Shown here: positions 1,119 through 5,056 of the stretch, piece after piece
How the letters are laid out: every line of letters starts with the position of its first letter
Position numbering within the stretch: the stretch's first letter is position 1
Source of the DNA: a virus
Lineage: Duplodnaviria > Heunggongvirae > Uroviricota > Caudoviricetes
Virus record (IMG/VR): IMGVR_UViG_2529293223_000003
Direction: 5' to 3' (one strand)
Length of the DNA: 5,056 nt
Notes under the pieces: model-generated
The model's database searches: none
What the model was told of the DNA's origin: nothing
The model's input: only the letters and a program-made list of their open reading frames with translations
Program-made: the position numbers and the translations under genes

Positions 1119-1200
1119 TGAAGCGGCGCACGAAAAACGCGAAAGCGTTTCACGATAAATGCGAAAACTTTAGCTTTCGCGCTTCAAATGAAACAGCAGT
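1119..1200. mobile_element. Phage Mu right end (attR) with MuA-binding sites R1, R2 and inverted R3; Mu terminus at 1119 (5'-TG...)
   Basis: 1119-1168 reads TGAAGCGGCGCACGAAAAACGCGAAAGCGTTTCACGATAAATGCGAAAAC, which I recognise as the canonical 50-bp Mu R-end. 1172-1198 holds an inverted copy of the MuA consensus (reverse complement TGTTTCATTTGAAGCGCGAAAG). Confidence 0.85.
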
Positions 1201-1233
1201 ATTAATTACCGCTTTTTATTCATTACATGGGGA

Positions 1234-1959
1234 TCACTTAGGGTATGGCTGAACCTTGAATAGTTTGGTATTTAGCCGCTTCCTTGCTCGCTTGTTCAGG
1301 AATCTGATGTAGCGATACTGATTAAATTTGTGCACCACGGCACGCTCCTTATTAGCTCGCAAATACTCGCCTCGTTGCCCTCCGCGCTTAATCGCGTTCA
1401 TCGTTATCTCGTGATACCACTCACCATCCAGCTCGTAGAACGTGCTTTCATGGCTGCCAATAAAATCAAAATTCGACGCCTGATACACAACGCCTGCGAG
1501 TCCGCAGCGTTCGTCAGCAAAGGACTGAACCCACTCCACTGACGGATACAGTAATCTGATAACTTTCAGCGCGTAGCTGATGGCCCGTGATTCAGAGTTG
1601 CGGGGCATGTCGTCGTGTAGCCACATGCGATTCAACTCCATATAGCCCCGGTTATCCGTTTCAAGCACGACACGACGACCTGAGTTGGGGTTAAGGGCAT
1701 ATCCCCACTGGAGAACGCCAACCAGATCACGCCCGCTGAATACTCCCAGGTGAAGGTAAGAGTTATTCACAAAACGGCGGGAATAGTGCTTTGTCTGAAT
1801 GATTGTGCGGGCCAGCCAGCAGGATATGGTTTCAACGCGCAGCTCCTTTGAACCATAGCCAACAATCTGGCCTTCATACTCAATAACGCACGGTTTCGTC
1901 AGAATGCGTGATTTCTTCTCTTTTCCCACAATGTTTCTCCGTGGGATGCTCGCAGACAT
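1234..1959 (-). CDS. mom: Mom, phage Mu DNA-modification protein (adenine N6 carbamoylmethyl/acetamido modification, anti-restriction)
   Basis: ORF 1234..1959 (241 codons from the ATG at 1959). A shorter 231-codon product from the GTG at 1929 is possible. Sits immediately downstream of com with overlapping frames, as in the Mu com-mom operon, next to the Mu right end. Confidence 0.85.
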
Positions 1960-2068
1960 TCAGCATTATGATGTGACGTTTGCAACGCGGACACCTGATT
2001 TCAATGTGATCAAAGGAATCCGCTTTAAATAACAGTTTGTTGCAGTTCTTACAGCGAATTGATTTCAT
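1880..2068 (-). CDS. com: Com, 62-aa zinc-finger translational activator of mom
   Basis: [38 protein letters not shown]... with four Cys in a CxxC...CxxC arrangement. The ATG at 2066-2068 is preceded by a strong Shine-Dalgarno (AAGGAGGT, 5 nt upstream). The ORF track's longer 2086 start lacks this. The 3' end overlaps the mom start region. Confidence 0.9.
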
Positions 2069-2086
2069 TTCACCTCCTTGCATCAA

Positions 2087-2180
2087 TTCGCCGTTATCTT
2101 AAAAAATCTCATCAGTCGGGTGTGGTTATCGGGACATAATCGATCGGTAATACAGATCGATTTAATTGATTCGATCGTCG
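2087..2180 (-). promoter_or_regulatory. com-mom promoter region: three Dam GATC sites (2142-2145, 2155-2158, 2173-2176), T6 run and -10-like TAAGAT (minus strand, about 2096-2106)
   Basis: Three GATC sites within 35 bp upstream of com, the last inside the final codons of the gin remnant. On the minus strand, GAGATTTTTTAAGATAACGG precedes com. This matches the known Dam/OxyR- and C-protein-regulated mom promoter architecture of Mu. Exact -35/-10 assignment is uncertain. Confidence 0.6.
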
Positions 2181-2359
2181 TTTTCTATATGCGTTCCTTT
2201 TTGAAGGCGCTTTAAAGCACGTTTTAATCCCGGTCGGTCTGTCCTTGTTCCGCTTAATTTATCTTCAAATATTTGTTCACATCCTGCACAAACAAGAGCG
2301 TTTCGTTGCAGGTCTGTATTCTGGTCATTTGTTGATACCCTTACATAGCCAATCAGCAC
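2162..2359 (-). pseudogene. gin: gin serine DNA invertase, internally deleted in frame: 65-codon remnant with N-terminal 55 residues and C-terminal about 9 residues
   Basis: GTG start at 2359. MLIGYVRVSTNDQNTDLQRNALVCAGCEQIFEDKLSGTRTDRPGLKRALKRLQKG matches the N-terminus of Gin/Pin/Hin/Cin-type invertases, with the catalytic Ser at residue 9. The ORF then reads T-HIENDDRIN and stops. Full-length invertases are about 185-195 aa, and the gix-to-com interval has no room for another one. Junction is around 2189-2197. Confidence 0.8.
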
Positions 2360-2413
2360 GCTGAATTCCCCGTTTAAAAGCGGAAATCATGCCATGCAGG
2401 CCAGAAACGGCCA

Positions 2414-2439
2414 TTATCTAAAACCTCGGTTTACAGGAA
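2414..2439. other. gix recombination (crossover) site, the gin-proximal boundary of the invertible G segment
   Basis: TTATCTAAAACCTCGGTTTACAGGAA is a 26-bp imperfect palindrome of the hix/gix/cix type (TT.....AAACC / GGTTT.....AA half-sites around a 2-bp core), 55 bp upstream of the gin start. The tail-fibre reading frame opens immediately inside it. Confidence 0.7.
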
Positions 2440-3384
2440 ACGGTAAATCAGGCTTCTGGCGCATTACAGAAAAACCAGAACGGCGCAGATATTCCAGGAA
2501 AAGATACCTTCACCAAAAATATTGGGGCCTGCCGCGCATATAGCGCATGGGTGGATATTGGTGGCGATAGTCAGGTCTGGACAACTGCGCAATTTATTTC
2601 GTGGCTGGAGAGTCAGGGGGCATTTAACCATCCTTACTGGATGTGCAAAGGCTCATGGGCTTATGCAAACAATAAGGTCATTACAGATACAGGTTGCGGA
2701 AATATTTGTCTTGCAGGTGCTGTGGTGGAAGTTACTGGCACTCGCGGCGCAATGACCATACGTGTTACTACACCGAGTACGTCCAGCGGTGGCGGAATTA
2801 CTAACGCTCAATTCACTTATATTAATCATGGCAATGCTTATGCTCCTGGCTGGCGACGAGACTACAACACGAAAAACCAGCAGCCTGCATTTGCTTTAGG
2901 GCAAACAGGAAATACCGTCGGAAACGACAAAGCCGTTGGCTGGAACTGGAATAGCGGTGTTTATGATGCAGATATCAGCGGTGCATCAACATTAATCCTC
3001 CACTTCAATAAGAATACGGGGAGCTGCCCTGCTGTACAGTTCCGTGTGAATTATAAGAACGGCGGTATTTTTTATCGTTCAGCGCGTGATGGTTATGGAT
3101 TTGAGGCTGGCTGGTCAGAGTTTTACACCACAACACGCAAGCCATCAGCGAGAGATGTTGGCGCATATACGCAGGCAGAATGTAACTCAAGGTTTATTAC
3201 AGGTATTCGCCTTGGTGGTCTGTCATCTGTTCGGACATGGAATGGTCCCGGCTGGTCTGACAGGTCAGGTTATGTTGTTACCGGTTCCGTTAACTCAAAC
3301 AGAGATGAACTAATTGATACAACTCAGGCAAGGCCAGTTCAGTATTGCATTAATGGGACGTGGTATAACGCGGGGAGTATTTAA
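2422..3384 (+). CDS. S': Tail-fibre variable C-terminal part, gin-proximal cassette (probably S'v, silent in this orientation); no start codon of its own
   Basis: The frame is open from the stop at 2419-2421 (inside gix) through to 3384. The track's GTG at 2551 has no Shine-Dalgarno. C-terminus ...PVQYCINGTWYNAGSI parallels the other cassette. The S' versus S label is inferred from partner sizes (U' 177 aa, U 175 aa, from memory). Confidence 0.7.
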   Translation, partial: NLGLQETVNQASGALQKNQNGADIPGKDTFTKNIGACRAYSAWVDIGGDSQVWTTAQFISWLESQGAFNHPYWMCKGSWAYANNKVITDTGCGNICLAGAVVEVTGTRGAMTIRVTTPSTSSGGGITNAQFTYINHGNAYAPGWRRDYNTKNQQPAFALGQTGNTVGNDKAVGWNWNSGVYDADISGASTLILHFNKNTGSCPAVQFRVNYKNGGIFYRSARDGYGFEAGWSEFYTTTRKPSARDVGAYTQAECNSRFITGIRLGGLSSVRTWNGPGWSDRSGYVVTGSVNSNRDELIDTTQARPVQYCINGTWYNAGSI

Positions 3385-3386
3385 CG

Positions 3387-3920
3387 ATGATGCACTTAAA
3401 AAACATTTCTGCTGGTAATCCTGAAACAAAAGAGCAATACCAGCTAACGAAGCAATTTAACATCAAATGGCTTTATACAGAGGATGGAAAAAACTGGTAT
3501 GAGGAACAAAAGAATTTCCAGTCTGATACGTTGAAAATGGTCTATGACCACAACGGCGTTATTATTTGTATTGAAAAGGATGTTTCAGCAATTAATCCGG
3601 AAGGCGCAAGCGTCGTTGAGGTTCCTGATATTACAGCAAATCGCCGGGCTGATATTTCAGGTAAATGGATGTTCAAAGATGGCGTAGTGATAAAGCGAAC
3701 TTATACCGGGGAAGAGCAGAGGCAACAGGCGGAAAATGAAAAGCAAAGCCTGCTACAGCTCGTCAGGGATAAAACCCAGCTATGGGACTCACAGCTACGG
3801 CTGGGTATCATTTCCGACGAGAATAAACAAAAATTAACCGAGTGGATGCTCTATGCGCAGAAAGTCGAATCCACAGACACCTCCAGCCTGTCAGTAACGT
3901 TTCCCGAACAACCTGAATGA
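3387..3920 (+). CDS. U': Tail-fibre assembly protein (Tfa family), 177 aa, probably U'
   Basis: ORF 3387..3920, MMHLKNISAGNPETKEQYQLTK..., starting 2 nt after the tail-fibre stop with a GGGGAG Shine-Dalgarno. N-terminal about 110 residues are paralogous to the minus-strand Tfa, the C-terminus diverges. Confidence 0.85.
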   Translation: MMHLKNISAGNPETKEQYQLTKQFNIKWLYTEDGKNWYEEQKNFQSDTLKMVYDHNGVIICIEKDVSAINPEGASVVEVPDITANRRADISGKWMFKDGVVIKRTYTGEEQRQQAENEKQSLLQLVRDKTQLWDSQLRLGIISDENKQKLTEWMLYAQKVESTDTSSLSVTFPEQPE

Positions 3921-3923
3921 GAC

Positions 3924-3950
3924 AAGGCCCGCTATCGGGCCTTAATTTTT
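3924..3950 (+). terminator. Intrinsic-terminator-like hairpin between the convergent tfa genes (stem AAGGCCCG / CGGGCCTT, loop CTAT, then AATTTTT)
   Basis: 8-bp GC-rich stem at 3924-3931 and 3936-3943 followed by a T5 run on the plus strand. The U-tract is weaker on the minus strand, so bidirectional function is uncertain. Confidence 0.5.
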
Positions 3951-4476
3951 ACTCTGGTTTTTGTGGCCATTCTGGCTTTGCCGTATCCACACGGCTGACC
4001 AGAACACTGTAGCGTTCCCATGACTCCAGTCGTGCGCGTTCCTCATCTGTTGCCATATTCAGCCTGACAGAGCGCTCCAGCGGCTGAATAACGCTTTCTG
4101 CTTCGGAAAGTAACGCAGCTTTTTGTAATTCGGCCTGTTGTTGCTGTTCGTCTGCCGTATAAATCCGTTTAACCACAGCTCCGTCCTTAAACATCCATTT
4201 ACCTGAGTCATCAGCACGTCGGTTGGCTGTTATATCGGGGATTTCAACGACGCTAAAACCTTCAGGATTAAGCGTGGAGGCATCTTTAGTGACGGCGACA
4301 ATAATATTATTTTCGTCGTAAACAATCTTTATTGTGTCCGGCTGAAAGTTCTTCACTTCCTCATACCAGTTTTTATCGTCTTCAGAGTAAAGCCAGATGA
4401 CTCCGTGTTTCTTTGTCAGCTCATACTGTTCTGGTGTTTTAGCGTTACCCGCTTTTATATTCTTCAGGTGCATCAT
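3949..4476 (-). CDS. U: Tail-fibre assembly protein (Tfa family), 175 aa, probably U
   Basis: ORF 3949..4509 trimmed to the [11 protein letters not shown]... start at 4476, which mirrors the plus-strand tfa start and lies 1 nt after the upstream tail-fibre stop (4478-4480). The 11 extra N-terminal codons in the track ORF overlap the tail-fibre gene and are unlikely to be real. Confidence 0.85.
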
Positions 4477-4477
4477 A

Positions 4478-5056
4478 TTAAATACTCGCCACATTATACC
4501 AAGTGCCATTTATATACTTTTGCACTGGCCTGTAATGAACGCCTGCAATATTATCGGCAGAGTTTTTTCCGGTATCCTGTACGTTAATCCCCGTCAGTAC
4601 ATAGCCTGACGGGCACTGGAAATTCCATGTTTGCCAGTTGTTCACTCCATAATATTGCTGTGAACCAAGCCGGACATCTTTCACATATCTGGAATCAAAA
4701 TTGCCATAGTTGCCTGGAATAACTTGCGAGCCGCAAAGCCAGTTACCGTTATTATCCATGTACGCCTGACCATCGGTGCCATTGGCTGTCCTTGAGTTAT
4801 TAATCATGTAGATGCCAAATTGCTTATTCCCCAGCCCACCAATTACGAATTTACGGTCGGTATGGTCCTGGCGAAGCAATGCCTGCGCACCATCGTTGGA
4901 TACCGCATTACGGCCCAGAATAACATTCTGGTCACGCATATGAATCCACATGCCGGTACTACTGTTAATTGCAAAACGGTTTGCAAATATATCTCCTGTA
5001 ACAACCAGACCATGCCCCATGCTTATCCGGCCAGTTCTGAGATTAAGCGTAAAGGG
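4478..5056 (-). CDS. S: Tail-fibre variable C-terminal part, distal cassette (probably Sv, the expressed one if fused to a constant part outside the window); partial, continues past the window end
   Basis: Minus-strand frame is open from the window edge (5056) to the stop at 4478-4480. C-terminus ...[16 protein letters not shown]. The ATG at 5020 is internal. Confidence 0.75.

Follow-up and report, generated by a model that had tools for sequence, protein, structure and literature searches.

Probable natural null allele of the invertase gene gin in a Mu/SfMu-like prophage lineage of Shigella

The gin gene at the right end of a Mu/SfMu-like transposable prophage of Shigella has been reduced to a short in-frame remnant, which is very probably a natural null allele of the invertase gene. 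The event is one of ordinary prophage gene loss, and its carriers are many isolates of S. flexneri and S. boydii. The analysis started from a stretch of 5,056 bp, hereafter referred to as the window, which makes up the whole of contig AFGE01000074.1 of assembly GCA_000211975.2; the tail-fibre proteins of this contig are named Shigella boydii in public records. It is proposed that a single illegitimate-recombination event would have removed 384 bp (codons 56-183) of gin, and that the module formed by the truncated gene (gin'), com and mom would later have spread with phages still capable of movement or recombination. The invertible G segment would then stay in the orientation that it held at the time of the loss, here with S and U expressed, unless a Gin- or Pin-type invertase acts in trans. 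Decay has gone further in S. flexneri, where a remnant of about 4.7 kb is left of the element.

Gene and prophage are both of a known kind, and the value of the observation lies in an annotation correction, a lineage marker and a modest piece of phage natural history. The 65-aa 'recombinase family protein' that is annotated in hundreds of Shigella genomes would be a dead gin and not a small recombinase. The gin' allele can further serve as a convenient marker of a Mu/SfMu-like prophage lineage, which is common to S. flexneri and S. boydii and is found at two insertion sites. In addition, Mu-like phages that are gin-null and carry a fixed tail-fibre cassette seem to persist in nature, possibly dependent on the invertase of a neighbour; if inversion in trans by a co-resident prophage proves true, it would be a small, neat case of prophage cross-talk. 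The known biology of Gin, Fis and mom regulation is left unchallenged, and no new mechanism is indicated.

Organisation of the prophage right end

The window covers the right end of a transposable prophage of the Mu/SfMu type, which is set into an IS600. An IS600-like element of the IS3 family occupies positions 1-1118 on the plus strand, shares 99.3% identity with the IS in locus L003 and has its 3' part broken by the Mu-type insertion. Its ORF (8-1030) matches the Pfam families HTH_21 and rve. Comparison of the IS part with locus L017 revealed three indels at 19, 280 and 1022, each of which lies within a homopolymer run, and the fused transposase ORF of 340 aa (8-1030) is probably a sequencing artefact of the draft contig. 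The terminal sequence of the Mu-type right end, TGAAGCGGCGCACGAAAAACGCG, begins at 1119 and interrupts the IS600; from this position on, the attR region (1119-1233, minus strand) aligns with the final bases of the Mu genome record.

The genes that follow are all encoded on the minus strand up to the end of gin. The intact mom gene (1234-1929) encodes a Mom protein (PF25680) of 231 aa from its called start, with the ORF reaching 1959, and the exact window protein is present on 877 contigs. The com gene (1880-2068, with its ATG at 2068), which encodes 62 aa, is likewise intact, and the Zn_ribbon_Com domain (PF10122) is found in homologous loci. The mom promoter and control region, assigned by homology to Mu, spans 2069-2195 and is followed by the 5' part of the gin remnant up to 2359. 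Beyond gin lies the gin-proximal gix (2414-2447), an intact 34-bp inverted repeat, and from 2448 to the end of the window at 5056 about 2.6 kb of the G segment, which is partial and stands in the Mu reference orientation with S and U expressed. Its genes are the variable part of S' (to 3384) and U' (3387-3920) on the plus strand, and U (3949-4476) and the variable part of S (from 4478 to the window end) on the minus strand. The order of Mu-type terminus, mom, com, gin and G is collinear with the right end of Mu, and the tail and baseplate genes expected upstream are found in loci L017, L018 and L010. An Rfam scan of the window gave no match.

Anatomy of the gin deletion

The remnant ORF (2162-2359, minus strand) starts with GTG and encodes 65 aa (MLIGYVRVSTNDQ...LQKGTHIENDDRIN). 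Inspection of the window by a model without database searches, here called the sequence-only reading, had described it as a 65-codon in-frame remnant that keeps both ends of the gene, and the ORF list and the alignments bear this out. Gin references from Mu, a D108-type phage, SfMu and an E. coli prophage were aligned at the DNA and protein levels; all of them are 193-197 aa long. In the alignment, Gin residues 1-55 are directly joined to THIENDDRIN, which corresponds to residues 184-193, and residue T56 of the remnant derives from the C-terminal side, as in ...KRTHIEN of SfMu and D108-type Gin. The 55 N-terminal residues had thus been counted correctly, whereas the C-terminal residues, given before as about nine, number ten when T56 is included. 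The loss of roughly 128 codons could be made precise by alignment to Mu gin: exactly 384 nt (codons 56-183) are missing, and the reading frame is kept.

At the junction, which lies between window positions 2195 and 2196, AAAAAGG is joined to AACGCAT. Perfect microhomology amounts to at most 1 bp and AAAGG/AAACG provides an imperfect match; neither foreign sequence nor a restriction-site scar was found at the junction. The 5' remnant (2196-2359) of 164 nt runs from codon 1 through codon 54, includes two bases of codon 55 and is identical to Mu gin at 163 of the 164 positions. The 3' remnant (2162-2195) consists of 34 nt, made up of the final base of codon 182 together with codons 184-193 and the stop codon, and differs from Mu gin at a single position.

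The catalytic serine motif YVRVSTNDQ (YxRVSTxxQ, with Ser9) is retained at residues 5-13 and equals that of Mu Gin. The Pfam Resolvase profile, however, matches the remnant only over profile positions 2-63 of 145, compared to 2-144 for Mu and D108-type Gin, and a search of the remnant for HTH_7, which full-length Gin has at residues 138-181, gave no Pfam match, in agreement with the earlier statement that most of the catalytic domain and the helix-turn-helix are absent. Since most of the catalytic domain and the entire HTH are missing, the product is not expected to be an active invertase; with the E-helix, the HTH and the bulk of the catalytic fold gone, it is predicted to be unable to bind or recombine gix.

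Distribution and authenticity of the allele

The exact 65-aa remnant is present on 623 public contigs, where it is named 'recombinase family protein [Shigella flexneri]', and these include three complete S. flexneri chromosomes. An identical junction string was found in 18 of 18 other carrier loci that were fetched, including four IMG/VR contigs. The occurrence of the junction in these loci and of the protein on the 623 contigs shows that the deletion is neither a chance observation nor a misassembly. The entire window, IS included, is collinear at 99.5-99.8% identity with loci L017, L018 and L025, the first of which lies within a 3.27-Mb contig beside flgJ-flgK. No match to the deletion junction was obtained among the GTDB species representatives, and the deleted allele was not found in 5,426 complete E. 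coli genomes or 50,697 phage records; the best matches in both of these collections consist of two pieces 384 bp apart and represent the full gene. Because Mu, D108, SfMu and the E. coli and phage matches all have the two pieces at this distance, the deleted allele is the derived state, and it is confined to Shigella as far as the searched collections show.

A chimeric contig, in which the gin' flank would have been joined to the G segment of another prophage, was suspected when the first ten carrier loci turned out to hold G in inverted orientation and with no more than 94-97% identity. This candidate was rejected by the collinear loci L017, L018 and L025.

Three other explanations of the remnant were weighed against a natural null allele. 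Since the window is a draft contig of 5 kb with homopolymer indels in its IS part, an error of assembly or sequencing could be suspected. The same junction, however, occurs in three complete S. flexneri chromosomes, in the 3.27-Mb contig and in many independent drafts, and the gin' interval does not differ at all between the window and L017, so that an artefact has practically no probability left. The same reading had offered either an engineered or a natural deletion. A laboratory Mu derivative would be in keeping with a clean, in-frame deletion that keeps both gene ends, but the allele sits at natural chromosomal sites (two insertion sites) in hundreds of clinical Shigella isolate assemblies and in complete genomes, its junction is free of a restriction-site scar and of foreign sequence, the Mu-carrying laboratory strains S17-1 and ST18 have full-length gin, and the flanks are only about 96% identical to Mu. 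Engineering can thus be dismissed with near certainty, and the distribution across Shigella assemblies supports the natural deletion. It is also very improbable that the 65-aa product has acquired a new function, for instance as a regulator or inhibitor of related invertases. Such a function might be read from the in-frame ORF with its native start and from its identity on 623 contigs; however, identity is expected without selection in a clonal pathogen lineage (mom is likewise identical on 877 contigs), an in-frame result has a prior of one in three, and the fragment is devoid of the dimerisation helix and the DNA-binding domain.

Recombinational enhancer and mom control region

[quoted passage not shown] The positions of the enhancer sites and of the OxyR footprint were taken in part from PMC3378877. 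A scan of the gin remnant with the Fis consensus, which the earlier reading had proposed, yielded one strict match at 2275-2289; the five matches in the whole window compare to 4.4 expected, which is chance level and on its own no evidence for Fis binding. Two 15-mers at 2324-2338 and 2275-2289 (gin nt 22-36 and 71-85) are presumably the paired Fis sites, with positions that we assume from the hin enhancer.

The mom transcription start is placed at about position 2089, as judged from the Mu -10 element and the T run. The -10 element TAAGAT lies at 2096-2101 with the T run (T6) upstream, and TTAT...ATAA is conserved with Mu. GATC sites are present at 2142, 2155 and 2173, the last of which lies within the final gin codons, as had been remarked before; with three clustered GATC sites, the TAAGAT -10 element and the T run, the features of the Mu mom control region are present. 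The gin 3' end (2162-2195) lies within this region (2069-2195), an overlap that the sequence-only reading had stated for Mu. The first base that is kept beyond the deletion (2195) corresponds to -106 of Pmom and marks the upstream limit of the surviving control region. Each of the three GATC sites is kept, as is the Fis footprint from -107 to -84, and the Fis site from -133 to -115 (-123) is lost. The claim that the deletion spares both embedded cis elements thus stands for the enhancer region, with its 163 of 164 positions identical to Mu, and for the GATC cluster, but not for the upstream Fis site of Pmom.

Whether the sparing of these elements calls for selection was considered by random-placement arithmetic, in which a 384-bp deletion was placed inside gin with the mapped bounds of the enhancer and of the mom control region. 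Both cis elements are spared at about 55 of 199 positions (28%), and the prior of an in-frame outcome is one in three. Because of these two values and of the continued decay in S. flexneri, selection for the cis elements is not established; a deletion internal to the gene adequately explains their survival, and a need for the mom control region, which the sequence-only reading had offered as a reason, does not have to be assumed. The deletion endpoint falls within 1 bp of the edge of a mapped Fis footprint on Pmom (-107), and this coincidence would not be explained by neutral loss alone.

A further difference was noticed in the mom operator (2140-2164), in which the 8-bp inverted repeats AATCGATC and GATCGATT enclose a 9-bp spacer between the GATC sites at 2142 and 2155. 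The spacer is flipped in every gin-deleted locus (window, CTGTATTACCG; L003, CTATATTACCG) compared to Mu (CGGTAATACAG), SfMu (CGGTAATATAG), locus L014 and an E. coli prophage, and an A/G polymorphism within the spacer is seen in both orientation classes. The flipped spacer represents a tiny inversion within the Dam/OxyR target.

Fate of the G segment

The gin-proximal gix of the window differs from that of Mu by 1 nt (TTATCT vs TTATCC). Its partner falls outside the window; in L017 and L018, which are collinear with the window, it lies about 3.07 kb away and is intact, and L010 likewise has both gix sites intact. In four independent assemblies (window, L017, L018 and L025), the same allele of G stands in the same orientation beside the deleted gin. 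Four assemblies that span gix in one orientation lead us to lean towards a frozen G, and the segment of the window-type prophage seems to be fixed with S and U expressed. The 3.27-Mb contig that carries L017 (PSSR01000001.1), however, also holds a second Mu-like prophage, L014, whose Gin of 197 aa has both domains and is identical to phage D108 Gin. The sequence-only reading had suggested a search of the same genome for a second invertase that could act in trans, and one was thus located, in the genome of L017 and not in the window's own assembly. Inversion of G in trans by a co-resident Gin is possible, as this enzyme, two intact gix sites and the enhancer region are all at hand.

The authors of the SfMu report suspected that inversion of G is impaired in SfMu and that the defect is a 1-bp change in one gix, and they suggested that the C-to-G change possibly impairs inversion (PMC4406740). 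The distal gix of L014 (12912-12945) and that of L013, which is SfMu (1367-1400), have this C-to-G change beside the crossover centre (AAAACGTCGG); the gix pair of the gin-deleted prophages is free of it. A contig of 3,088 bp, L020 (GCA_001907465.1), begins and ends inside two gix sites and represents the G segment alone, which could reflect either a culture that is heterogeneous for inversion or the presence of two near-identical copies of G.

In the helper reading, gix, the enhancer and the mom control region were all kept because they still function, the Gin of a co-resident Mu-like prophage or another enzyme of the Pin family inverts G, and selection would have acted on the deletion endpoints, with the enhancer as the constraint on one side and the mom control region on the other. 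This is considered unlikely, although several observations speak for it. Both gix sites are intact in L017, L018 and L010, but the S. flexneri copies have lost half of one gix site and part of G, which argues against a sustained constraint there. The D108-identical Gin is encoded by a second prophage on the same 3.27-Mb contig, and a co-resident Gin is known from this one related genome and not from the assembly of the window. G is found in either orientation among the carriers (window, L017, L018 and L025 vs L010); however, G of L010 is a different allele, with 96-97% identity next to a flank of 99.7%, and module exchange by homologous recombination explains its orientation equally well. L020 is bounded exactly by two gix sites, yet the four resolved window-type assemblies all show one orientation. 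The enhancer region is nearly identical to that of Mu, and -106, where the deletion stops, lies just beyond the edge of the Fis footprint from -107 to -84; chance alone is expected to spare both elements about 28% of the time. Simple gene loss, with G frozen unless an invertase happens to be supplied, remains the preferred reading.

Comparison with known systems

As in the Gin systems of Mu and D108, gin lies between gix and com-mom at the right end of the phage. The first 55 residues equal Mu Gin, and the 34-bp gix, the layout of S/U and S'/U' and the com-mom operon match those of Mu. Unlike gin of Mu and D108, the window gene is devoid of codons 56-183 and thereby of the complete catalytic domain and the HTH; the window further differs from Mu in its flipped mom operator spacer and in sequence, with about 96% identity across mom-gin and about 92% across G. 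Loss of gin gives a viable phage whose G orientation and host range are fixed, and related invertases can restore inversion in trans. Laboratory gin-negative Mu mutants with frozen G were reportedly used to obtain pure G(+) or G(-) lysates, for example by van de Putte and colleagues in 1980; these were induced or constructed mutations in Mu, whereas the allele described here is a natural one that occurs across Shigella lineages.

The Gin-homologous pin systems of Shigella offer another parallel. In 1991, Tominaga and colleagues reportedly described pinB of S. boydii, which is accompanied by an invertible G-like segment (the B segment), and the invertase gene pinF of S. flexneri, which is defective. 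The latter gene is reportedly e14-related and not a remnant of a Mu-type gin.

The Mu-like S. flexneri phage SfMu (KP010268) shares the organisation of the right end. In contrast to the window, it has a full Gin of 197 aa and G in the opposite orientation, with S' and U' expressed, and its gin-mom region is about 96% identical. Most S. flexneri strains hold SfMu-like prophage remnants (PMC4406740). The 'slightly smaller 3.5-kb EcoRV band' of the SfMu paper was considered as a possible trace of the deletion, but the EcoRV fragment with gin is a phage-host junction fragment and is therefore uninformative.

Spread and further decay of the lineage

The gin'-com-mom module shares 99.6-100% identity among the carriers and has the same junction in all of them. 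As junction and module are this uniform across different contexts, the deletion seems to have had one origin. The carriers nevertheless fall into at least two contexts. In the S. flexneri carriers, the Mu end adjoins dpiA, beside the cit operon, whereas in those of the window type (window, L017, L018 and L025) it lies inside an IS600 near flgJ. Window-type contigs of about 30 kb or more have intact tail modules, both gix sites and the entire G segment. The module occupies two or more insertion sites and has mosaic surroundings, which indicates that it travelled with mobile or recombining phages. The deletion is therefore older than at least one event of transposition or lysogenisation and than part of the modular recombination, and phages with the deletion must have stayed mobile for a time; gin is dispensable for the growth of Mu, which agrees with this mobility.

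In the S. flexneri copies L003-L009, L011 and L012, 11 bp (TTTTAGATAAT) are absent, which form the outer half of the gin-proximal gix; the loss lies at about 9946 in L003, which is equivalent to window 2413-2424. In these copies, an IS600 also cuts G short. The partial loss of gix and the IS600 cut are second and third lesions of the inversion system in this species.

Between L010 and L017, the tail genes are 98.3% and the G segments 96.3% identical, and G of L010 has the opposite orientation. Across the carriers, the part that corresponds to window 1119-2412 is 99.6-100% identical, compared to 94-97% for the adjoining G (2448-5056) and about 98% for the tail genes. This abrupt mosaic boundary at gix suggests that fibre modules have been exchanged among Mu-like prophages.
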